Virus record (IMG/VR): IMGVR_UViG_3300035181_001114
Span: 1 to 45,226 of that record
From: a virus
Reading direction: 5' to 3' (one strand)
Length of the DNA stretch: 45,226 nucleotides
Positions 23,497-45,226 of this stretch are shown one piece after another. The stretch's first letter is position 1. Every line of letters begins with the position of its first letter. The notes under the pieces are model-generated. The model worked only from the letters and a program-made list of their open reading frames with translations. It did no database searches and was not told the DNA's origin. Position numbers and translations under genes: made by a program.

Positions 23497-23895
23497 ATGA
23501 GAACAAATATTTTACTAGCAGCAAATGGAACATTACTAAATCCAAATCAAAATAATTTTATAATTACAAGTTCAATCAATGGCAATGCGGGATATACACA
23601 ATTTCAAAATCAAATTACTGCATGTTTTTATAATCAAGTTACGCAATTAGATAACGGTTTGTATGTACCACTCAAATCAAGTGTTATAAAAGCTGGGCTA
23701 TCTGGCACAATACAAATAAAAGCATTTGCAGCGGATGATGCACCATATGCTACTGATATTACGCCAACCGATAGCATTAATATTGCATCAACTTGTATCT
23801 TACAATTTTATGGAGTTGTAGAATCATTAAATATAACTTGTACTGGAATCACTGGCGCAGCATTCATTAATCTTTTAATTGATCGGAGTTATTAA
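23497..23895 (+). CDS. Hypothetical structural-module protein
   Basis: 132 aa with a GGGGG RBS, directly upstream of tail fibre 1. Confidence 0.4.
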   Translation: MRTNILLAANGTLLNPNQNNFIITSSINGNAGYTQFQNQITACFYNQVTQLDNGLYVPLKSSVIKAGLSGTIQIKAFAADDAPYATDITPTDSINIASTCILQFYGVVESLNITCTGITGAAFINLLIDRSY

Positions 23896-23971
23896 GATGA
23901 GTAACACATATCCAAATGGCGGGAATATATATCCTAATCCAACCTCTGGAGGTGGAGGTGGTGCAACTGCT
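23894..23971 (+). repeat. 78-bp direct repeat, copy 1 (5' end of fibre gene 1)
   Basis: aagATGagtaacacatatcc...ggtgcaactgct is identical to 25764-25841 apart from one synonymous T/C difference (23935 vs 25805). Confidence 0.9.
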
Positions 23972-25723
23972 GATGCGACTTATATTACTAAATTAAATGA
24001 GATTGTAGCTTTGCCTAATTCCCTACCACTATCTAGTCTTGCAAGTGGCCTACTTGCAAATACTACAGGAACTGGTGATTTAAATCCTGTTACATTAACG
24101 GGTACAATAAATCAAATAACAGTATCCGGGGGTGATGGTTCATCTACGCCAACATTTAGCCTCTCGTCAACGTTAATTTTTCCGGGAACTATAACATTGG
24201 GGGGGGCTTTAAATACAGCTGGTAATACTATATCACAAGATAGCGGTTCAATGAATTTAACAGCGCCCTCAAGTATTGATTTAATTACCCCATTTGCTTC
24301 AATGAATGGATTACGACATTATGGCGAATCAACAAATAAAATTCTTTTTGGCACGGGGATACAACAATTTCTACCAGATAATTTTTTACAATTTCAAATT
24401 AGTGCAAATGGAATTAATCTAGCTTCTGGGCCCACAGTTAATAGTATAACAACAAGCTCTACTAGTACGTCAACAACTGCTTTAATGACTGCGAATACTA
24501 TCCAATCTGCTATAGCTTCCGCTATTGTATCGGGTAAATCTTTCCGTGGTGGTTGGGATGCATCGGGCGGTTTATATCCTGCTACGGGCGGTAGTGGTGT
24601 CGGTGGTGCGATAAATATGGGTGATTGGTGGTATATAACGATTGGAGGAACGGTCGGCACAAATCCAGTCCAACCCGGAGATCAGATTTATGCTTTACAA
24701 GATATCCCGGGTCAAATTGATGCGAATTGGTTAGTTGTTATTTCAAAAGTCGATAGCGTATTTGGAAGAACCGGAGACGTGGTTGCTACAATTGGGGATT
24801 ATAATTTTAATCAATTATCAGGAAGTGCCAGTTTATTGCAAGGCGGTACGGGGAATACCACTGTAGGCGCTACTGGAACTTTCGCATATTCCGACGGTAC
24901 AAAATATGTTTTTAGCGCTATGGCTGTTCCTCTTATCGCTGGAACTGCTGGAACGTATTGGCGCTCAAACGGTACAGCAGTTCTATCTAGTACGATACAA
25001 GCCGCGGATGTGCCAACGCTTAATCAAAATACAACGGGGCAGGCTGGAAGTGTTGCAAATGCTGCTACATTTAATAATAGCGGCACAGGTGATGCAAGTG
25101 GCTCCGCATTCGATGGTTCTGCTGCTAGAACCATTTCATACAATACTTTCGGAGCATCTCCTCTCGCTGGAAGCTCGTCATTAACAACGGTAGGAACGCT
25201 AACAAGCGGGGTTTGGAATGCTACTCCAATTACGGCCGCATATGGAGGTGCTTCGTATGGAATATTTGTTCCTTTTTTAGCAAATAAAATTATAAGTGGA
25301 CCGGATTGGGATACCGTTCCCTTTGGAACTGATACAGCAAAAGGAATATGTCCGGGCGGTGTATCTGCCGCACAATTTGTTTACCATTATTTTTTATATT
25401 TAAAAGTTGGAATTACTTATAGATTTAGTTTCTCTGCTTTAAAATTTAATTCAGCTGGCATCTTACAATTTTCAGTTCAATCAAGTAATCAATCAGTAAC
25501 ATATAATACTTTATCAAGTGTAGATTTATATTCCTCTTCAGCGGGAGTAGTGTCGATAAATAAACAAACATTTACATTTTCTCCCAGTGGCTTTAACGCT
25601 GGAGATTGGGTTGAATGTACATTTGTTTATTCTTGTTCAACTAAAAACGTTTCGTCAAGTGGCTATTTTGCGCCGGTGATTGATGGAAACGCTGGATTTT
25701 CATTTTATGAAAAATATAGCTAA
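23897..25723 (+). CDS. Tail fibre 1
   Basis: ATG 23897 follows GGAG (the track start at 23879 is upstream). Gly/Ser/Thr/Asn-rich fibre-like sequence (LNQNTTGQAGSVANAATFNNSGTG...). It shares a 25-aa N-terminus with the next gene. Confidence 0.65.
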   Translation: MSNTYPNGGNIYPNPTSGGGGGATADATYITKLNEIVALPNSLPLSSLASGLLANTTGTGDLNPVTLTGTINQITVSGGDGSSTPTFSLSSTLIFPGTITLGGALNTAGNTISQDSGSMNLTAPSSIDLITPFASMNGLRHYGESTNKILFGTGIQQFLPDNFLQFQISANGINLASGPTVNSITTSSTSTSTTALMTANTIQSAIASAIVSGKSFRGGWDASGGLYPATGGSGVGGAINMGDWWYITIGGTVGTNPVQPGDQIYALQDIPGQIDANWLVVISKVDSVFGRTGDVVATIGDYNFNQLSGSASLLQGGTGNTTVGATGTFAYSDGTKYVFSAMAVPLIAGTAGTYWRSNGTAVLSSTIQAADVPTLNQNTTGQAGSVANAATFNNSGTGDASGSAFDGSAARTISYNTFGASPLAGSSSLTTVGTLTSGVWNATPITAAYGGASYGIFVPFLANKIISGPDWDTVPFGTDTAKGICPGGVSAAQFVYHYFLYLKVGITYRFSFSALKFNSAGILQFSVQSSNQSVTYNTLSSVDLYSSSAGVVSINKQTFTFSPSGFNAGDWVECTFVYSCSTKNVSSSGYFAPVIDGNAGFSFYEKYS

Positions 25724-25763: not shown

Positions 25764-25841
25764 AAGATGAGTAACACATATCCAAATGGCGGGAATATAT
25801 ATCCCAATCCAACCTCTGGAGGTGGAGGTGGTGCAACTGCT
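25764..25841 (+). repeat. 78-bp direct repeat, copy 2 (5' end of fibre gene 2)
   Basis: See 23894-23971. Confidence 0.9.
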
Positions 25842-27461
25842 TTAACCGTTATATCTGGTGATGGTACTGTGGTGCAAAATGGGCTATCATCTTATGATTC
25901 TGGCACCCAAACAATTACTGTAGATTTAGCGGCTACCGCATCATTAAACGCGCATTCACCTTTTATTGCATTTAATCAATTAACAGATGCACCATTTAAT
26001 AATAATTATCAATTTTCAGCTTATGGAGATGGTATATTTTTAACATGCACTGCGGCTGGAGATGGTACCGGGGTATTGTCTTATACAATAGATAACGGTA
26101 AAACTTGGATAACAGGCACACCAATTAATGCCGGAATTACAAAAATTACCGGAATTGCTTACGGAAATGGTACTTGGGTAATAGTAGGTGATGCTGGGCA
26201 ATATGCGTATTCATATAATTTGACGATTTGGCAAAATAGTTTTTTTGATATGGGTATTAATTCTGTCAATGATATAACTTTCGGTAATGGTTATTTTGTT
26301 GTAGTCGGAAATGGTGGGCAGTGTAGTACATCTACAGACGGTAATAATTGGGTACCAATTACGCTACCGTCTTCGGATGATTATACAAATATAGCGTATG
26401 CAGATTTTTTTGGTTTTGGAAATCCTTATGCCCCTACATTTGTGGCAATTTCTATTAATAGCGGTAGTACGGCTTACAGTATAACAAATGGACAATATTG
26501 GCAATCTACAACACCTTTACCGATAACAACATACACGGCGGCTAAATTATGTGCAAGCCCAACGTTATTTTTATTGATCGATACAGGAGGCGGAACGCCA
26601 ACAAATGATTATATGTATTTTGATTATTTTGGCGTATGGACTGATGGTTCGGCCAATCCATTCCCAACTGCTGAAACATGGAGTGGGGCTGCTTATGACC
26701 CAATTAATAGAGTTTTTTTGTTATTTGGCTCTGATGGTTTTTCTACAACAGCGGTGCAAGGTGTATTATCATCTCCAGATTCGTCCACATATTCGTTAAC
26801 ATGGTCATCTATAACGCAACCACAGGCGGCAAAATGGCTGACTCCTGTTTATGGTGCATTTGGTTTTATGTCATTTAATACATTAAATGCAGCTAATGCA
26901 TATTTTGCTTTTTGGTCTTTTGCTCCGCAAATAGATGGTGAAGCGGGAAATAATCAAATAGTTAGTCAAAATGATTTAGCAATCGGCCTTAATTTTTTTG
27001 CAAAAAAATTACCTTCAGAGGGTAATCCGGTAGTTTCTCAATTAGTTTCATTTTTAAATAATTTTAGTTACTCGTCCGGTAATAATCAAGTTTTAAAATT
27101 TGATACAATAGTAGGGAGCGGGATGGCTAATCTTTATAATACAATTAGTGGGAATTTTGTTGTGCCATATTCAGGTATATATTTAATTCAACTGCAAGGA
27201 CAATGCACAAGCAATTCTGTAACTGCTTTAAAATTAATATCAATAATAGGCGCTTTTAATTATTTGGTTGGGTATACTCGTCCGTTAGTTAATAACTCAA
27301 GCGGTTCCACTGATAGCTGTGTTTTTTCTACCTGTTTAACTTTAGTCGCTGGTGCACAATTTCAGGTGCAATTTGATGCAAACGCGTCTGGTGATTGGGA
27401 GGCTGGAGTTGGTGCGCAAAGTCTCTATACAACAAATATAATGGTCACTTTTATTGGATAA
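25767..27461 (+). CDS. Tail fibre 2: shared N-terminal anchor, Asp-box propeller and C1q-like C-terminal domain
   Basis: Same MSNTYPNGGNIYPNPTSGGGGGATA N-terminus as fibre 1. The middle has repeats (IDNGKTWI, STDGNNWV, ITNGQYWQ). C-terminal KFD...LYNTISGNFVVPYSGIYLI matches the C1q spacing (FD..Y...SG.F.....G.Y). Confidence 0.65.
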   Translation: MSNTYPNGGNIYPNPTSGGGGGATALTVISGDGTVVQNGLSSYDSGTQTITVDLAATASLNAHSPFIAFNQLTDAPFNNNYQFSAYGDGIFLTCTAAGDGTGVLSYTIDNGKTWITGTPINAGITKITGIAYGNGTWVIVGDAGQYAYSYNLTIWQNSFFDMGINSVNDITFGNGYFVVVGNGGQCSTSTDGNNWVPITLPSSDDYTNIAYADFFGFGNPYAPTFVAISINSGSTAYSITNGQYWQSTTPLPITTYTAAKLCASPTLFLLIDTGGGTPTNDYMYFDYFGVWTDGSANPFPTAETWSGAAYDPINRVFLLFGSDGFSTTAVQGVLSSPDSSTYSLTWSSITQPQAAKWLTPVYGAFGFMSFNTLNAANAYFAFWSFAPQIDGEAGNNQIVSQNDLAIGLNFFAKKLPSEGNPVVSQLVSFLNNFSYSSGNNQVLKFDTIVGSGMANLYNTISGNFVVPYSGIYLIQLQGQCTSNSVTALKLISIIGAFNYLVGYTRPLVNNSSGSTDSCVFSTCLTLVAGAQFQVQFDANASGDWEAGVGAQSLYTTNIMVTFIG

Positions 27462-30152: not shown

Positions 30153-30362
30153 TTACGCTTTTATAAGATCAATAGTTCGAATTGTTTTAGTATGTTCTTT
30201 AATATATCCCATTTGCTTAAGTTTAGTTATAATTTTACGCGGCTCCTTAACTCCAAAATTTTCAATTATAAAAATATATAAGTTATCGCGACTGATCTTT
30301 CCATTTGATTTTTTTAAAAAATCAATAATTGGTTTATAATAGAATTCTCGTTTTATTGGCAT
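30153..30362 (-). CDS. Hypothetical protein
   Basis: 69 aa. The start overlaps the upstream stop by 1 nt. Confidence 0.5.
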   Translation of the reverse strand: MPIKREFYYKPIIDFLKKSNGKISRDNLYIFIIENFGVKEPRKIITKLKQMGYIKEHTKTIRTIDLIKA

Positions 30363-30642: not shown

Positions 30643-32193
30643 TTATTTTTTTAATTTAATCATATAATTGTTCAATTGTTTATTAATTTGTCCGCGTATT
30701 TTATGTAATGTAGTTTTATTAATGGTATTACAATTACCGCTATCATATACCGTTATTAATTCACCTATTATTTCATCATCAAAACTCACTTGGTCATGAA
30801 GCACATATTCACCATCGATAAAATCAACATTTAAAAAACCTCTAGCAGACTTTTTAGTACCAGAATCAGTTTTTGGCTCTTTAAATATTTCTCGTTTTTC
30901 ACCATTTACAATGCCACAAGTTGATTTTACTGCCATGCCAAAACTATCTCGGGTAGAGTATTGATATGTATAACTTCCAATGCCAAACACAACATTACTG
31001 CTCGCAAAACCTTTCTTCTCAAGTTTATCTAATATAATGTTAGCTCGCTCAAGTGTGATACTGTCGCCATAAATTAAACCAATATGGGTGTCTAAAACTT
31101 TATAGCCTTTTCCGTTAATTGTACCGCCAAAAGTATCCCATAAGCATTGTATGGCTCCTTTCCCTTCTGGAGTATCTGGGTAAAATTCCTCATAATTTCC
31201 ACTTGGCAAGCGTGTTTCTTCTAGTTTGCCGCATATAATATCTACAGGATCGCCGGAATCAGGTCTAATAACCACTTTACCATCTCGTGACATGATTACA
31301 TCTTTTAGTTTTGGTAAATAATCTGTTATAACTTGCCAAAAATCCCAAGTATCACTGACTATTGAAACTATTTTTTTTGGATAAGTTTTGGTTATTAACC
31401 TCTCAAATAATTCTATCTCATTATCTTTGCCATTAAGGCTCATAACGGAATGTTCTGTTGCTGGAACACTACACCCAATGGTAGTGTGTAAATCAGCATT
31501 ATAATAATACTGCAACATAGGAATTGCCGGAATTGTGTCAGTGCCTAAAAAACAAGTTAAATGCGCCATTCCTGACGTTGCGGCATCCATGTGCCCACTC
31601 ATCCCCCTAAAGCTAAAATCATGTGCTTGGAAATCGACTGCGCTTAAATCTGAGCCAGTTTTAACTGCATAGTGAATTAATATCTTTTTATACTCAAAAG
31701 CTATAGTTGCGTTAGTGCATAATTTCCAAATATCTGCCGACATCCATGTTTCGAGAAAATTAGTAAGCCAATAAAATTCCGATAACGTATTGCATATTGT
31801 CAGTATGGGAACTTTCATATTAACACGTGATCCCTCTGGTAAAGCTTTAATATGAATTGGTAAATAACCCAATTTATGGAGCGCCTCAATATGATCGAAT
31901 GTTATTGCATTTTTACCCAATCCGTGTTCAATAATTTGTTTATAATCACTTAAAACCTCATTAAGAGGTAATTTAAAAAAGTTATCCTCAAAACTATCGT
32001 GTAAATTTTTAATAAAATATTGAATTCCAAACACAATCATTTTCCCATCGTAAAAAGGGCTTTGTTTACAAGTTGATAATTTATCGCTCCTAGGTGTTAA
32101 ATTACTGTAAACCAATTCTGTGCCTTCTGGATATTGAAATTTATGTCCAATTTTGTAAAAATCACACATATACATAGGATTTAATTTAATCAT
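30643..32193 (-). CDS. Nicotinamide phosphoribosyltransferase-family enzyme (Nampt/NadV-like; candidate Namat of NARP1)
   Basis: 516 aa with family landmarks CDFYKIGH, HLTCFLGTDT, VPATEHSVM, IRPDSGDP, IYGDSIT and VVFGIGS. The start overlaps the stop of the Prs-like gene (TAATG). Confidence 0.9.
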   Translation of the reverse strand: MIKLNPMYMCDFYKIGHKFQYPEGTELVYSNLTPRSDKLSTCKQSPFYDGKMIVFGIQYFIKNLHDSFEDNFFKLPLNEVLSDYKQIIEHGLGKNAITFDHIEALHKLGYLPIHIKALPEGSRVNMKVPILTICNTLSEFYWLTNFLETWMSADIWKLCTNATIAFEYKKILIHYAVKTGSDLSAVDFQAHDFSFRGMSGHMDAATSGMAHLTCFLGTDTIPAIPMLQYYYNADLHTTIGCSVPATEHSVMSLNGKDNEIELFERLITKTYPKKIVSIVSDTWDFWQVITDYLPKLKDVIMSRDGKVVIRPDSGDPVDIICGKLEETRLPSGNYEEFYPDTPEGKGAIQCLWDTFGGTINGKGYKVLDTHIGLIYGDSITLERANIILDKLEKKGFASSNVVFGIGSYTYQYSTRDSFGMAVKSTCGIVNGEKREIFKEPKTDSGTKKSARGFLNVDFIDGEYVLHDQVSFDDEIIGELITVYDSGNCNTINKTTLHKIRGQINKQLNNYMIKLKK

Positions 32194-33050
32194 TATTCTT
32201 GATCTCCTTCTTGAAATACCACTTGTTCAACTTCTAGGCCTGATATATTATTGTATTTGTTCACAATAAAATTATAACTATCTTTATTAATAATTTTTAA
32301 TTTGTTGATTCCCTCTTCTATTAAGTTATCAAAACCGTAAGTACCAAATTGATGATAAACCATCAGTTCGATTTCAATATTAAGCCTTTCTGAGTGTTCA
32401 AACTCTTTTCTCAATGCTTTTGCGCATTCTACAAATGTACGGTTGCCATCGCCAATATCATCACAAATTAAAAATGGTTTATATAAATCAATTTTATAAG
32501 GCATACGGAATGCGTCCAATTCTAAATGAGGCGTCCCAAATTTATTTCTAACTTTATTAAAAGTTATCATTTTATCATCCGAATAATAATAATGATGTCT
32601 GGCCGATGCATCGGGAAACACAATATTATATTGCGATTGCAATTCCATTAAATTATAGCGGTCTATATTTATATAGTTCTTGCCAAATGCATAATAATTG
32701 TGACAATGTAACGCCTGGGTTCTTACAACATCAAAATTTAAAAAAATGATTTTCGTAAAATCTATAAATGCAATTGATTGTCCGGCCTCAAATACTCGAT
32801 CTTGTCTAGCGTATGGCAAATAAGGTGCATCTAAAATAATTTGAATTCTATCGCCATACGTATGCCTAATTGCCGCCGCTTTTAACATTGGTATCATAAT
32901 ATCTTTTTGCGTGAAGTAATCCCAATGGATATAAACTATTCTGTCATATATGCGTTCTGTTAACGTGATTTCATACTCTCCTGAATTATGTTGTTTTATT
33001 TTAAATATATTTATTTCTTTTGTTAGTTTCAAAAATTCGTTTTCGTTCAT
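32193..33050 (-). CDS. Ribose-phosphate pyrophosphokinase-like enzyme (Prs-like; candidate Adps of NARP1)
   Basis: 285 aa with LPYARQDR, VFPDASA and the PRTase ribose-phosphate loop LICDDIGDGNRTF. ATGA overlap with the upstream ORF. Confidence 0.75.
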   Translation of the reverse strand: MNENEFLKLTKEINIFKIKQHNSGEYEITLTERIYDRIVYIHWDYFTQKDIMIPMLKAAAIRHTYGDRIQIILDAPYLPYARQDRVFEAGQSIAFIDFTKIIFLNFDVVRTQALHCHNYYAFGKNYINIDRYNLMELQSQYNIVFPDASARHHYYYSDDKMITFNKVRNKFGTPHLELDAFRMPYKIDLYKPFLICDDIGDGNRTFVECAKALRKEFEHSERLNIEIELMVYHQFGTYGFDNLIEEGINKLKIINKDSYNFIVNKYNNISGLEVEQVVFQEGDQE

Positions 33051-33352
33051 TCTTTTACCTTCACTTTCATTAAAACATAAGCGTAATCGTCATTTTTCAA
33101 TTCAGGAGCAATTTCTCCTGTTTCGGATCTGCCAGAAAAATGTTCATATTCTCCAGTATGTAGATTACTGTTTCCAATCCACAAAACCTCACCCTTGACA
33201 ACATGCTCGGTATAAAGTTTTATATGCGTAAATTTAATATTATTGCCTAATTCATTAATAAAATGAATAGATTTTGATTTGCTAAAACCATCCATACGAG
33301 GATCTTCTATTATTGATTTTATAAACAATAGCTTTTGCTCTTCAAATGTCAT
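33047..33352 (-). CDS. Hypothetical protein translationally coupled to the Prs-like gene
   Basis: 101 aa. Its stop overlaps the Prs-like start (ATGA). It contains VKGEVLWIGNSN, which recurs in the micro-ORF upstream. Confidence 0.55.
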   Translation of the reverse strand: MTFEEQKLLFIKSIIEDPRMDGFSKSKSIHFINELGNNIKFTHIKLYTEHVVKGEVLWIGNSNLHTGEYEHFSGRSETGEIAPELKNDDYAYVLMKVKVKE

Positions 33353-33456
33353 TGATTTTTTCCTTTAACTGTTGTATTTCCATAATCAATTCTTGCTATT
33401 ATACTGCTGCCAATCCATAAAACTTCACCTTTGATAATATTTAATAGAATTATCAT
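33349..33456 (-). CDS. Micro-ORF (35 aa), partial paralogue of the 101-aa ORF
   Basis: MIILLNIIKGEVLWIGSSIIARIDYGNTTVKGKNQ, with ATGA overlaps at both ends. At the DNA level, CCAATCCAyAAAACyTCACCyTTGAyAA is shared with ~33172-33199. Confidence 0.3.
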   Translation of the reverse strand: MIILLNIIKGEVLWIGSSIIARIDYGNTTVKGKNQ

Positions 33457-33617
33457 TTTTTAATCCCTTTTAATAAAAACCACATTGCCCCAAACAAACT
33501 TGGCATCATAGTTGCATTAAACCTTGATTCTTTGCACCTTTTTATCGCAATAGGCAATGCGTGTTGCCAATTGGTAGCGTAACGCACGTCTTCATAATAT
33601 AAGCCTTGTCTGCTCAT
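33453..33617 (-). CDS. Small hypothetical protein (54 aa)
   Basis: ATG 33617 follows an AAGGAG RBS and encodes MSRQGLYYEDVRYATNWQHALPIAIKRCKESRF... It is below the ORF-track cutoff. Confidence 0.45.
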   Translation of the reverse strand: MSRQGLYYEDVRYATNWQHALPIAIKRCKESRFNATMMPSLFGAMWFLLKGIKK

Positions 33618-34075: not shown

Positions 34076-34324
34076 TTAGGAAAAGCCATCGCCAGAGCCA
34101 TCGCCAGAGCCATAGCCATCGCCATAACCATAACCATAACCAGAGCCATCGCCAGAGCCATCGCCATAACCATAACCATAACCATAACCATAACCAGAGC
34201 CAGAGCCATCGCCAGAGCCATCGCCAGAGCCATCGCCATCGCCATAACCATAACCATAACCATAACCAGAGCCATCGCCATAACCAGAGCCATAACCATA
34301 TTTAATAAATGCAATTTTATTCAT
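34076..34324 (-). CDS. Gly/Tyr/Asp/Ser dipeptide-repeat protein
   Basis: GGAG lies 5 nt upstream of ATG 34324 (the track starts at GTG 34330). After MNKIAFIKY the product contains only G, Y, D, S and a terminal F: blocks of GYGYGY alternate with GDGSGDGS. Confidence 0.6.
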   Translation of the reverse strand: MNKIAFIKYGYGSGYGDGSGYGYGYGYGDGDGSGDGSGDGSGSGYGYGYGYGYGDGSGDGSGYGYGYGDGYGSGDGSGDGFS

Positions 34325-34721
34325 TTTCACTCCAATTTGGAATTGAATTAATATTATTAATACATTTTTTAGAACATATCAATATTTCAACCACTCCCAA
34401 CACAAGATGATTATCTGTAGGAACGCTTAATTTACTCTCTGACTTATTTTTTACTCCATTTTCTGCTAGATCAGATAACTCTGTTGCACCAGACCATTTC
34501 CAAATTCTTCTACATTTTGAAAGAATAGCATTTGCGTGCCCAATATATCCAGCTTTTTCAATTTGTATAATTTTTGCAAAAAATACTCCAGCTGCAAATG
34601 TGCGAACGATTGCTATTTTATTTAAATAATTAGCATAGATTGATGAAGATTCACTGTTAACTTCTTCATCAAGTAAACGATCTATTATTTTATCCAAAAT
34701 GTTAACACGTAAATTTGACAT
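34317..34721 (-). CDS. Hypothetical protein downstream of RecT
   Basis: 134 aa with an AAGGAAA RBS. No recognisable motif. Confidence 0.55.
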   Translation of the reverse strand: MSNLRVNILDKIIDRLLDEEVNSESSSIYANYLNKIAIVRTFAAGVFFAKIIQIEKAGYIGHANAILSKCRRIWKWSGATELSDLAENGVKNKSESKLSVPTDNHLVLGVVEILICSKKCINNINSIPNWSENE

Positions 34722-42115: not shown

Positions 42116-42493
42116 ATGATGATTTTGTGTGATCTGCATGGCACTTTATTAAACGAAAACGAACAAATTAATGATGTTGTTGCTGATTGTTTAAGAGGTT
42201 TTGCATACAGAAAATACGATATTTGTTTGATTACTGCTGCAAATTTACATCCACTAGATAAAGCAAAAATAGAAAATTTGTTAAAAGTTGCTTGCCTTCC
42301 GTGGGATAATATTTATTCACCTAATGAAGAGAGTAAAGATGATGTTAAAACTAAGGAAACTTTACTGAATCAAATCATAAAATCCTATGGCGACCCTATA
42401 TCTTTAGCAATTGATAACAGAAAAGATGTATGTAAAATGTATCGTAAACACAGGATTGATACTATGCGGTTTAAAGAATCTGATTATGATTGA
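42116..42493 (+). CDS. HAD-fold-like protein with an atypical motif I (DLHGTL)
   Basis: MILCDLHGTL resembles HAD motif I (DxDGTL) with His in place of the second Asp. ICLITAAN and AIDNRKD are plausible motifs II and IV. Weak assignment. Confidence 0.3.
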   Translation: MMILCDLHGTLLNENEQINDVVADCLRGFAYRKYDICLITAANLHPLDKAKIENLLKVACLPWDNIYSPNEESKDDVKTKETLLNQIIKSYGDPISLAIDNRKDVCKMYRKHRIDTMRFKESDYD

Positions 42494-44288: not shown

Positions 44289-45184
44289 ACATATTACAAG
44301 AGATTAGAAAATTAACAAACGAATGTTTGGTGCTTTTAGAAAAAAATAATAAGCAAAAATTTAAAAAAGGCGATCAAGTTAAAATTAAAGGCCCTACAAT
44401 CGGCAAGAGTAATGAGCGTTACGATGGAATAATTGGAACAGTTACAGAAAATAAGGTTAACTCATTTGGAAATTTAATAGTGGGTGTTGAAATTACAATT
44501 GCCACATTTATTAATTTTGGTTTTAGTGATGTAAGACATACAGAGAGTGAAACAATGATCCAATATTTTTCCCCAGATGCTTTAGAGTTATTTGAAGCAA
44601 CTGATAAACCAGAACTTAACTTTAAGAGGGGTGACAAAGTAAAGATTTTGAAGGATCCTTATCAAAATCATATCAACTATAAAGTAGGCGATAAGGTAGA
44701 AATACTGTCGGATGCTTTAATAAAAGAATTAGAAACCGTTTGCAGCAGTGGTGTAATAAAAAGCGCGGTTGGAAAAATTGGGGTGATTGAATCTTTCTCA
44801 GATTCAGGAGTGAGAGTTAAAGATTTACCACCTGAATGTGTGAGTTATTTTTGCCCAACGTGGTTTTATAAATTTGACCAAGTGAAACTTGTTGATTCAG
44901 AAATTGACACATCAGGGCAATCAGAACGTAAGAGCAACGCTAAAAGAATGGTAAATGAACTATCAAAAACCAAAGAAATCAAATATTTCGATTTTGCCAA
45001 AGCCTTGAAATATGCGAAAAAAGGATATACGATTGCTGATAAAGACGATGAAAATAACAAATTTTGGTATGAAGATAAAGTATATTACAATTCAAATGGT
45101 GAAGTAGATTCACTTATTATTGAAAAGCCTCATTTAAATTTATGGTACATTTGTAAACTACCGGGTGTTACTCATTCTGCATAG
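44285..45184 (+). CDS. Multi-domain protein: repeated KxGDxVKI SH3/KOW-like modules plus a C-terminal DUF2829-like segment
   Basis: 299 aa. FKKGDQVKIKG, FKRGDKVKILKD and KVGDKVEILSD recur. C-terminal FDFAKALKYAKKGYTIADKD loosely resembles the DUF2829 start (F.eAl.alk.Gk.v.R). The ORF ends inside the terminal repeat. Confidence 0.5.
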   Translation: MNILQEIRKLTNECLVLLEKNNKQKFKKGDQVKIKGPTIGKSNERYDGIIGTVTENKVNSFGNLIVGVEITIATFINFGFSDVRHTESETMIQYFSPDALELFEATDKPELNFKRGDKVKILKDPYQNHINYKVGDKVEILSDALIKELETVCSSGVIKSAVGKIGVIESFSDSGVRVKDLPPECVSYFCPTWFYKFDQVKLVDSEIDTSGQSERKSNAKRMVNELSKTKEIKYFDFAKALKYAKKGYTIADKDDENNKFWYEDKVYYNSNGEVDSLIIEKPHLNLWYICKLPGVTHSA

Positions 45185-45226
45185 TGCAAATTCATGCCAC
45201 TTTTATTTTGAACAATGAGGAAGTAG
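45100..45226. repeat. Terminal direct repeat copy 2 (identical to 1-127)
   Basis: Exact 127-nt match to the window start. Confidence 0.95.

Follow-up and report, generated by a model that had tools for sequence, protein, structure and literature searches.

A predicted NARP1 cassette with a very divergent Adps-like protein in the genome of an uncultivated tailed phage

Do three overlapping genes of an uncultivated phage encode a route for rebuilding NAD+, and if so, which of them belong to it? This question is raised by positions 30643–33352 of a stretch of viral DNA comprising 45,226 nucleotides (the window). NARP1 is an established counter-defence that occurs in ~4% of sequenced phages, and a further instance is therefore unsurprising in itself. 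A preliminary description of the window had assigned two of the genes to NARP1 and had proposed the third one, together with a truncated paralogue, as an extra component. The first part of this proposal was borne out, the second was not. With a probability of roughly 85%, the region 30643–33050 is a two-gene NARP1 cassette (Adps plus Namat), that is, an accessory module that would rebuild NAD+ from ADP-ribose and nicotinamide.

The three ORFs overlap on the minus strand of the 45.2-kb genome, exactly as had been described. Since the ends of the genome carry an exact direct terminal repeat of 127 bp, its earlier designation as complete is supported. ORF101 (33047–33352, 101 aa) is located upstream of the adps-like gene (32193–33050, 285 aa), which is followed by namat (30643–32193, 516 aa). 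ORF101 and adps share the four nucleotides ATGA (33047–33050). At the second junction, TAATG (32191–32195), the adps stop codon TAA (32195–32193) and the namat start codon ATG (32193–32191) have one base in common. Shine-Dalgarno-like GAAGG(AG) sequences precede the start codons of both downstream genes by 7–10 nt; that of namat (GAAGGAG, 32204–32210, minus strand) lies within the 3' end of adps, 10 nt 5' of the ATG. Genome-wide, 29 of the 61 same-strand junctions overlap; in 21 cases, the shared stretch measures 1 or 4 nt. The overlaps around the cassette are therefore not special. A scan for promoters and terminators yielded nothing above the shuffled expectation, and thus no cassette-specific signals. 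The 45-kb phage is without a close cultured relative; its terminase reaches 41% identity over its full length. When the region was compared by megablast with 50,697 phage records, no match was obtained. All landmark peptides listed previously are present in the translations, namely CDFYKIGH, HLTCFLGTDT, VPATEHSVM, IRPDSGDP, VVFGIGS, LPYARQDR, VFPDASA, and LICDDIGDGNRTF.

Judged by its sequence, the 516-aa protein is clearly a Namat, i.e. a predicted nicotinamide ADP-ribose transferase that would convert ADPR-PP and nicotinamide to NAD+ and PPi. It matches NAPRTase and NAMPT_N in Pfam, phrog_448 in PHROG, and NF006629 in NCBIfam (540 bits). The best matches in the PDB are the crystal structures 9W5X and 9W5W of SPbetaL1 Namat with 523 bits; the Nampts from human, mouse, and Xcc score ~210 bits. 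The sequence identity is 54–55% to the enzymes of SPbetaL1 and FADO, 51% to that of ICP1, and 55–65% to hundreds of further proteins. In an alignment to SPbetaL1 Namat, all mapped residues of the NAM/NMN site are conserved. Identical are D13, Y15, F189, S190, R192, D215, A242, R306, D308, and G360-D361 (SPbetaL1 numbering), and the catalytic His is present within PATEHS (VPATEHSVM).

A motif that is specific for Namat and forms the ADPR-PP clamp has been published (PMC12774641). The SCH clamp GSYTYQYSTRD of the 516-aa protein fits this motif, GS-X-phi-X-phi-X-phi-TRD, at each position. The corresponding sequence is GSFTYQYNTRD in SPbetaL1 Namat and GGALLQKVDRD in Xcc Nampt. Among the best 120 Namat homologues listed, 103 contain the strict motif. 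In Namats, the SCL loop contributes an auxiliary residue for adenine stacking. Its third position is an Arg, Lys, or Tyr, and where it is one of the latter two, stacking falls to the fourth residue. Here, the third residue is an allowed Lys and the fourth is a non-aromatic Leu, as in Aeromonas phage PhAER-3. The loop is seven residues longer than that of SPbetaL1.

The 285-aa protein is less readily classified. Its Pfam match is Pribosyltran_N with 27.5 bits, and it scores 110 bits with phrog_619 and 40.4 bits with TIGR01251. Since a phrog_619 match by itself cannot tell Adps and Prs apart (E. coli Prs reaches 193 bits and thus ranks above the Adps-like protein), the ratio of both scores was considered along with a tree; the ratio is the same as in proven Adps. 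Both cut-offs for canonical Prs are missed, with 40.4 of 113 bits for TIGR01251 and 27.4 of 297 bits for NF002320, compared to 423 and 533 bits for E. coli Prs. More generally, the Adps-like protein misses all NCBIfam cut-offs for Prs, as do the proven Adps. Pairwise BLASTP scores are 29–32 bits to the Adps of ICP1, SPbetaL1, and FADO, and 30 bits to E. coli Prs.

At the level of individual residues, the catalytic and acceptor residues R87, H121, D161, K185, D212, D213, and D216, the adenine contact F92, and F221 (ICP1 numbering) are retained. The adenine-stacking F18 is replaced by a His, which is also found in the subfamily sequences P0005 and P0006. The PP loop reads DDIGDGNRTF and contains an Asn-Arg pair, where ICP1 has Ala-Ala; this pair is restricted to the closest members of the subfamily. 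In Adps, a remodelled PP loop and a Phe lid build the donor site for ATP. G217 of the PP loop and the lid residue F221 are common to Adps-clade sequences (DDICDGGRTF, DDICDGAASF), whereas the loop of cellular Prs follows the pattern DDM-x-(S/D)TGGT(M/L). The protein comprises 285 residues compared to 315 in E. coli Prs, and its C-terminal tail cannot be aligned with that of Prs. An AlphaFold2 (AF2) model (pLDDT 83.9) has the PRPS fold with TM values of 0.6–0.65, and predicts for the tail a short helix and a strand; in Adps, the C-terminal alpha11-alpha12 regulatory/filament module of PRPS has been lost.

For the phylogenetic placement, a neighbor-joining (NJ) tree was computed from 56 sequences and 179 columns with 300 bootstraps by means of a numpy implementation; Bas63 was represented by Felixounavirus skuden, which belongs to the same genus. 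In agreement with the preliminary assignment, the protein groups with Adps and not with the 21 cellular Prs. This split has a bootstrap value of 98%, and of 100% in a smaller tree. The Adps side comprises the subfamily of the Adps-like protein, the Adps of ICP1, SPbetaL1, and FADO, the types found in Felixounavirus and in Aeromonas phages, two MAG loci with a neighbouring Nampt, and L018. Within the Adps side, the position of the Adps-like protein is poorly supported. The tree as a whole is a simple distance tree, and the branch is long. The protein is at most 34% identical to any sequence outside its own subfamily, including the phage Adps in GenBank. A scan of IMG/VR for close relatives gave none, and the subfamily is missing from 185,579 reference genomes of prokaryotic species. 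By these comparisons, the Adps-like protein is a member of a previously undescribed, very divergent Adps subfamily with 13 members, in which the catalytic residues are kept across a span of 37–61% identity.

Given this divergence, it is conceivable, albeit unlikely, that the specificity of the subfamily has shifted relative to characterised Adps. The low identity of at most 34%, the replacement of F18 by His, the G-D-G-N-R-T sequence of the PP loop, and the absence from reference genomes all leave room for such a shift. For example, the substrate might be a modified ADPR (ADPR-1''-phosphate or 2'-phospho-ADPR), or the pyrophosphate might come from another NTP donor. If true, this would extend NARP1 to defences that now escape it. 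An alternative, likewise unlikely, is that ORF101 and the adjacent ORF35 represent a new family of small proteins for anti-defence or host takeover, located in this accessory region.

The genomic context of related cassettes points to an intact pair of the NARP1 type. In four of four relatives from the subfamily (L004, L006, L007, and L008), namat is located directly 3' of adps, and each of these Namats bears the clamp, which is GSYTYQYSTRD in the first three and GSYTYQYNTRD in L008. The genes 5' of the cassette differ in all four. The conserved pairing agrees with the published observation that genes of the Adps clade have a Namat next to them in 97% of cases (10.1101/2024.02.11.579819). The earlier statement that the phage encodes neither an Nmnat nor a Nudix enzyme also held: Pfam scans of 36 ORFs revealed no CTP_transf_like and no NUDIX domain. 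These ORFs cover essentially all non-structural genes as well as those of the structural half that have the size of a Nudix or Nmnat gene. NARP1 and NARP2 have never been found in the same phage (10.1101/2024.02.11.579819). The NARP1 reading is therefore supported by the placement in the Adps clade (98%), the catalytic residues, the Adps-like PP loop, the missed Prs cut-offs, and the pairing with Namat in relatives. Together with the clamp motif and the lack of a detectable Nmnat, these findings uphold the original assignment at the level of the sequence.

From these findings, we infer the following activities of the two enzymes and the following role against host defence. The cassette would be situated as a swappable accessory module within a long leftward early/middle operon. 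A defence system of the NADase type (Thoeris, DSR, SIR2-HerA, and similar) would cleave NAD+ to ADP-ribose and nicotinamide. The PRPS-fold Adps, presumably an ADP-ribose pyrophosphokinase, would then move the beta,gamma-pyrophosphate group from ATP onto the C1'' hydroxyl group of ADPR, which yields ADPR-PP and AMP. Namat, in which a Nampt-like catalytic core is complemented by aromatic residues clamping the adenine (Y-x-x-x-Y within GSYTYQYSTRD) and by the SCL loop, would finally join nicotinamide and ADPR-PP directly to NAD+, such that no Nmnat would be required.

Some of the above observations can also be accommodated by classical salvage. In this case, the 285-aa protein would be a genuine PRPP synthetase. 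The 516-aa protein would function as a Nampt and produce NMN, which a host NMN adenylyltransferase of the NadR or NadD type would convert to NAD+; the pair would act as a general booster and not in ADPR recycling. The Pfam and NCBIfam names of both proteins agree with these functions, the YARQDR motif is Prs-like, and the pairwise score of the Prs-like protein to Adps is no better than that to Prs. Moreover, SPbetaL1 Namat also forms NMN from PRPP in vitro (PMC12774641), and some PRPP-dependent flux is therefore possible whatever the sequence. However, the complete ADPR-PP selectivity clamp of Namat, the position of the Prs-like protein on the Adps side of the tree with a PP loop deviating from the cellular D-T/S-G-G-T-L/M, and its score of only 40 bits with the general Prs model, for which the cut-off is 113 bits, all argue against salvage. 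Furthermore, the equivalent operon of Bas63 was functional in a host without pncC and nadR (10.1101/2024.02.11.579819). Taken together, classical salvage is quite improbable.

The preferred reading, a NARP1 pair, does not assign a role to ORF101. The preliminary description had regarded this gene as lying outside the published two-gene scheme. This view is out of date, because extensions with a Macro-domain Adpp (NARP1-AP) or with the RyR-domain protein RyDEP have been published, so that some NARP1 operons comprise three genes (10.64898/2026.01.28.702374; 10.64898/2026.05.28.727677). ORF101, alone or with ORF35, could thus feed or regulate the pathway like Adpp or RyDEP, and its location directly upstream with the 4-nt ATGA overlap would fit such a three- or four-gene system. 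None of the four related cassettes, however, is accompanied by a homologue of ORF101, and the genes upstream of them differ in every case. In contrast, the sister phage L001 contains a homologue at the syntenic position, where six small unrelated ORFs take the place of Adps and Namat; no protein of its 46.8-kb contig (JGI 3300038435, Ga0394682_112814) occurs among the Adps search matches or the best 120 Namat matches listed. In the relative L002, too, just small ORFs are found downstream. As genes typically overlap in this genome, translational coupling is a poor argument for membership of ORF101. In compact phage genomes, operon adjacency and ATGA coupling by themselves are no evidence that a gene belongs to a pathway.

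The sequence of ORF101 likewise offers no link to the known third genes. It has no Pfam or PHROG match, and a tblastn search against the 50,697 phage records at E <= 1 gave no match. Full-length relatives number only two in 5.8 billion proteins. When its alignment was used as a profile against 1.84 billion representatives, eight matches were obtained, just five of which were additional; these are weak, and none is annotated. Four of the five comprise 56–101 aa and cover the C-terminal domain only, which makes up nearly the whole of three of them (56–61 aa). The fifth is a doubtful repeat protein. An AF2 model based on a three-sequence alignment has a pLDDT of 49.6, with the two N-terminal helices alone being moderately confident, and its quality is insufficient for comparisons by fold. 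Pfam searches detected no Macro domain in ORF101, ORF35, ORF54, ORF85, or ORF69, and no RyR domain (Repeat12, PF02026) at E <= 0.1 in ORF101 or its neighbours. The only phosphatase among the scanned ORFs is a HAD-family protein (42116–42493), which is encoded on the opposite strand at a distance of 9 kb. It may be an Adpp analogue, the one observation pointing that way being a homologue two genes 3' of Namat in a single relative.

ORF35 (33349–33456, minus strand) is indeed a truncated paralogue, as had been noted, and corresponds to an internally shortened version of the C-terminal domain of ORF101. The two genes share a direct repeat of 39 nt with 82% identity (33402–33440 and 33166–33204), and ORF35 contains both the invariant KGEVLWIG core of the family (NIIKGEVLWIGSS) and the C-terminal VK.K (tail VKGKNQ). 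The absence of ORF101 homologues from related cassettes and their retention in L001 without the cassette argue that ORF101 is not a component of the pathway. ORF101 and ORF35 thus appear to be neighbouring backbone genes unrelated to the cassette; the idea of a third component is not supported, and an extended NARP1 system is very unlikely. The comparison with the sister phage rather suggests that the cassette is an accessory module which can be exchanged at a fixed position of the genome.

That the cassette is decaying, with Namat alone active and the Prs-like protein diverging under relaxed selection, is hardly credible: although the Adps-like protein (at most 34% identity outside its subfamily) is far more divergent than Namat (55–65%), its ORF is intact, its catalytic residues are kept in the 13 subfamily members, which indicates purifying selection, its AF2 model is confident, and the pairing with Namat is preserved in four of four relatives.

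As a system, the cassette has already been described; what appears to be new is a divergent member. The NARP1 operons of Bas63, SPbetaL1, FADO, and ICP1 (NrsAB) have the same order adps-namat with abutting or overlapping genes (10.1101/2024.02.11.579819; PMC12774641; PMC13586617). Common features are the Namat catalytic core, the SCH clamp, the PRPS fold with the catalytic Lys and Asp residues, a PP loop resembling that of Adps with the lid Phe, the clade, the lack of a detected Nmnat, and a phage-restricted lineage. The present cassette differs from these operons in the strong divergence of its Adps with the F18 to His replacement and the G-D-G-N-R-T loop, and from SPbetaL1 additionally in the longer SCL loop of Namat with a Leu at the auxiliary stacking position. 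NARP1-AP of Vibrio phage Gary (order Adps, Macro-domain Adpp, Namat) and the RyDEP-type NARP1 of phage DyoEdafos likewise combine the NARP1 core with an extra small gene in the same operon. In contrast, ORF101 matches neither Macro nor RyR, is located upstream of the pair, and does not co-vary with the cassette. NARP2 (PRPP-preferring Nampt plus Nmnat/Nudix of KVP40) also relies on a phage enzyme of the Nampt family for restoring NAD+, whereas here no Nmnat/Nudix was found, the clamp is that of a Namat and not a Nampt-type loop, and an Adps partner is present, which NARP2 phages lack. With cellular Prs (TIGR01251) and Nampt/NadV, the two proteins share the folds and the core chemistry, i.e. 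pyrophosphoryl transfer from ATP and phosphoribosyl-type transfer to nicotinamide. The N-terminal beta-alpha unit of Prs is missing from the Adps-like protein, whose PP loop also differs and whose score stays far below the family cut-off; the aromatic clamp of Namat has no counterpart in Nampts. An Adps lineage that is missed by ordinary pairwise similarity, yet keeps the catalytic residues and a clamp-bearing Namat partner, can inform annotation rules and help to map those Adps positions that tolerate change.

The genome comprises 45,226 bp with a GC content of 33.7% and is complete, as indicated by an exact direct terminal repeat of 127 bp (positions 1-127 and 45100-45226), which corresponds to a terminally redundant or circularly assembled molecule. 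It contains no tRNAs. The closest match of its terminase, full-length with 41% identity, is found in Rhizobium phages, and the phage is without a close cultured relative. The cassette lies on the minus strand and consists of genes for a 516-aa protein (30643-32193) and a 285-aa protein (32193-33050); on the same strand follow the genes for the small proteins ORF101 (101 aa, 33047-33352), ORF35 (35 aa, 33349-33456) and ORF54 (54 aa, 33453-33617). ORF translations and reading of the sequence confirmed the coordinates and peptide landmarks of a preliminary description, as well as its overlaps (ATGA at 33047-33050, TAATG at 32191-32195). At both overlap junctions, a Shine-Dalgarno-like GAAGG(AG) precedes each start by 7-10 nt. 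Scans yielded 75 promoter-like sites (67.6 ± 9.3 by chance) and 6 terminator-like sites (4.7 ± 2.5 by chance). As neither number is above chance, the cassette appears to be read within a long leftward operon, whose top promoter-like site is located at about 39957-39928.

Sequence comparison identifies the 516-aa protein as a Namat, the enzyme that joins ADPR-PP to nicotinamide in the phage NAD+ rebuilding pathway NARP1. The protein matches NAPRTase (2.8e-41) and NAMPT_N in Pfam and phrog_448, nicotinamide phosphoribosyl transferase, in PHROGs (1e-196). Among all PDB sequences, the top matches (523 bits) were 9W5X and 9W5W, the crystal structures of SPbetaL1 Namat-nicotinamide and Namat-NAD+, compared to about 205-210 bits for each of the canonical Nampts. 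Identity is 54% to the Namats of SPbetaL1 (biochemically characterised) and FADO (validated by deletion), and 51% to ICP1 NrsB. The Namat-specific clamp motif is matched at all positions: the protein contains GSYTYQYSTRD and SPbetaL1 Namat GSFTYQYNTRD, whereas the Xanthomonas Nampt contains GGALLQKVDRD. The strict motif is present in 103 of the 120 closest homologues (best 120 matches, 5.8-billion-protein database). The mapped nicotinamide/NMN-site residues D13, Y15, F189, S190, R192, D215, A242, R306, D308, G360 and D361 are identical. In the SCL, the loop with the auxiliary adenine-stacking residue, which exceeds that of SPbetaL1 by 7 residues, the third residue is a Lys, one of the permitted Arg, Lys and Tyr; the fourth is a non-aromatic Leu at the position where stacking is expected when the third is Lys.

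Two further observations concern this family. A hypervariable insertion site lies at residues ~320-342 (about 31170-31235), directly past the conserved PVDIICG; here the protein has ~22 residues more than SPbetaL1 Namat, and the homologues of two relatives (L007, L008) and of Escherichia phage skuden, a Felixounavirus, carry insertions of 70-100 aa. PDB entries 9ke8/9keo, deposited as 'nicotinamide phosphoribosyltransferase', score 440 bits, far above Nampts; in their clamp, GAQTYQRNTRD, neither position 3 nor position 7 is aromatic.

The weak point of the NARP1 reading in the preliminary description was the Adps, the Prs-like enzyme that produces ADPR-PP. In Pfam, the 285-aa protein matches Pribosyltran_N alone, barely over the cut-off (27.5 bits), and in PHROGs phrog_619, ribose-phosphate pyrophosphokinase (1.8e-31). 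The top matches in GenBank phages are "Prs" genes of an Aeromonas phage, Felixounavirus and Vequintavirus with at most 34% identity. Pairwise BLASTP gave 30.0, 28.9 and 32.3 bits with the proven Adps of ICP1, SPbetaL1 and FADO, and 30.0 bits with E. coli Prs. Despite these equal scores, the protein can be assigned to Adps by profile scores, residues, PP loop and phylogeny. The phrog_619/TIGR01251 scores are 110/40 bits for the 285-aa protein, 287/98, 248/106 and 246/96.5 for the Adps of ICP1, SPbetaL1 and FADO, and 193/423 for E. coli Prs; none of the NCBIfam Prs cut-offs is reached, and the same is true for proven Adps. In the numbering of ICP1 Adps, whose structures are described in PMC13586617, R87, F92, H121, D161, the essential K185, D212, D213, D216 and the lid residue F221 are kept; F18 is replaced by a His, which is still stacking-capable. 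The PP loop, DDIGDGNRTF, resembles the Adps type, which in the aligned clade is mostly DD-[IL]-[CGS]-D-G-x-x-[TS]-F; the 21 cellular Prs, some of them archaeal or CPR, have DD-[MI]-x-x-[TG]-G-[GS]-T-[MLI]. The Asn-Arg pair is restricted to the closest relatives, and SPbetaL1 and FADO deviate at two middle positions (DDLSSFGGTF).

In a neighbour-joining tree of 56 sequences (179 core columns), an Adps side was separated from all 21 cellular Prs at 98% bootstrap; a smaller tree containing three Prs gave 100% for this split. The Adps side comprises the subfamily of the 285-aa protein, the Adps of ICP1, SPbetaL1 and FADO, sequences from skuden and Aeromonas phage PhAER-3, the database matches P0017-P0031, two MAG loci with a Nampt-like neighbour, and L018. 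The subfamily (13 sequences, 37-61% identity) is monophyletic at 100%, and the tree gives no placement of it within the Adps side. AlphaFold2 predicts the PRPS fold with its two domains (pLDDT 83.9, pTM 0.81), with TM values of 0.6-0.65 to Prs structures at 14-19% identity. The 285-aa protein is best classified as a very divergent Adps-clade member.

Genomic context supports a two-gene unit. In all four subfamily relatives with examined contigs (L004, L006, L007, L008), the Adps-like gene is directly followed by a Nampt-like gene whose product bears the same clamp motif. No close relatives of the Adps subfamily were found in 185,579 prokaryotic species (one genome each), where all substantial-span matches had about 30% identity or less and were mostly archaeal or CPR Prs; this is consistent with the phage-restricted distribution reported for Adps. 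As previously noted, an Nmnat (CTP_transf_like) or Nudix domain was not found in Pfam scans of 36 ORFs, which covered nearly all non-structural genes plus the Nudix/Nmnat-sized ORFs of the structural half. It has been reported that 97% of Adps-clade genes have a Namat neighbour, that 94% of phages with a NARP2-type Nampt encode an Nmnat, and that no phage has both pathways (10.1101/2024.02.11.579819).

Several variations were seen around such pairs. Skuden has an HNH homing endonuclease between adps and namat (L016:3157-3648), and PhAER-3 a 123-aa protein with a PHROG 'phosphoheptose isomerase' match (L017:3226-3597). On contigs of a Bdellovibrio MAG (L021) and a Caulobacterales MAG (L026), a Prs-like gene of the Adps type sits next to a gene whose Nampt-like product is 47-49% identical to the 516-aa protein; these are bacterial NARP1 loci or else phage or prophage DNA binned with the MAGs. 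Weak homologues of ORF54 and ORF69 (30153-30362) lie beside the cassette in L004 and L006 in shuffled positions, a sign that small genes are exchanged in mosaic fashion around the mobile module.

Established here are the pairing of the two genes, their assignment to family and clade, the intact catalytic and specificity residues and the lack of an Nmnat route among the scanned ORFs. Judging from characterised homologues, the NARP1 mechanism would operate with a probability of about 0.85. A NADase effector would split NAD+ into ADPR and nicotinamide. Adps would pyrophosphorylate ADPR at its distal ribose, taking the beta,gamma-pyrophosphate from ATP, with the donor organised by K185 and the PP loop, and Namat would join ADPR-PP to nicotinamide, yielding NAD+ in two steps; its aromatic clamp would hold the adenine and thus favour ADPR-PP over PRPP. 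The main rival, a classical Prs plus Nampt supplying a host NMN adenylyltransferase, is disfavoured by the Namat clamp, the Adps-clade placement and the failure of the 285-aa protein in all Prs models. Together with the pairing in the relatives, these findings support the NARP1 reading proposed earlier.

The proposal that ORF101 could be a third component is not supported. ORF101 has no match in Pfam or PHROG and no tblastn match at E ≤ 1 in 50,697 phage records, and only two full-length relatives exist among 5.8 billion proteins searched. One (P0002, 52% identity) is encoded on the 46.8-kb contig of a sister phage, which shares 80-88% identity with the present phage in its tail, baseplate, endolysin and VRR-NUC proteins. 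It occupies the same syntenic slot, 5' of the ORF85, ORF69, VRR-NUC and endolysin homologues, and up to the ORF85 homologue six unrelated small ORFs (52, 72, 103, 56, 124 and 89 aa) replace Adps and Namat; no protein from this contig was among the Adps search matches or the best 120 Namat matches. The second relative (L002) is followed by small ORFs alone. No ORF101 homologue occurs within 5 kb on each side of the four related cassettes, whose 5' genes encode mutually different proteins of 49, 75, 66 and 82 aa. Because the sister phage has ORF101 without the cassette and related cassettes lack ORF101, ORF101 belongs to the backbone of this phage lineage, and Adps-Namat is an accessory module inserted directly downstream. 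The ATGA coupling carries no weight, since overlaps occur at 29 of the genome's 61 same-strand junctions and measure 1 or 4 nt in 21 cases.

When 1.84 billion representatives were searched with a profile of ORF101, its C-terminal half (LY.EN..GEV.W.G ... Y.YV.MKVKV) was the sole part recurring elsewhere, in most cases as an independent protein of 56-61 aa. The structure prediction for ORF101 is of unusably low confidence (pLDDT 49.6). ORF35 retains both ends of this domain and has a 39-nt repeat in common with ORF101 (82% identity), and its earlier designation as a truncated paralogue is borne out: it is a shortened tandem paralogue.

Elsewhere in the genome, the hexamer AGCCAT is repeated 36 times in tandem (34084-34300, 78% matches), which gives an 84-aa ORF (34076-34330, minus strand) without a family match; its product is composed almost exclusively of the dipeptides Gly-Tyr, Gly-Asp and Gly-Ser. 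Two adjacent plus-strand genes for tail-fibre-like proteins (23879-25723, 614 aa; 25767-27461, 564 aa) have the near-identical N-terminus MSNTYPNGGNIYPNPTSGGGGGATA and therefore resemble a receptor-binding module that has been duplicated; in the sister phage, one 668-aa gene takes their place. A small HAD-family phosphatase (42116-42493, plus strand; HAD_PNKP 4e-7, PHROG 'polynucleotide kinase') has a homologue with 38% identity two genes 3' of Namat in L004 (L004:8105-8527). In view of its position in this one relative, a role in processing phosphorylated ADPR species, comparable to that of the Macro-domain protein Adpp, is conceivable.

Third genes are known from NARP1 operons, namely the Macro-domain ADPR-1''-phosphatase Adpp (NARP1-AP), found in ~15% of NARP1 phages (10.64898/2026.01.28.702374), and the RyR-domain glycosidase RyDEP (10.64898/2026.05.28.727677). 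In contrast to these extra genes, ORF101 matches neither domain, and a third component, the would-be novel element, is not supported. It is conceivable but improbable that the divergent Adps subfamily has altered specificity, or that ORF101 and ORF35 form an unrelated new small-protein family. The cassette adds an unusually divergent case of the known NARP1 and not a new kind of system.
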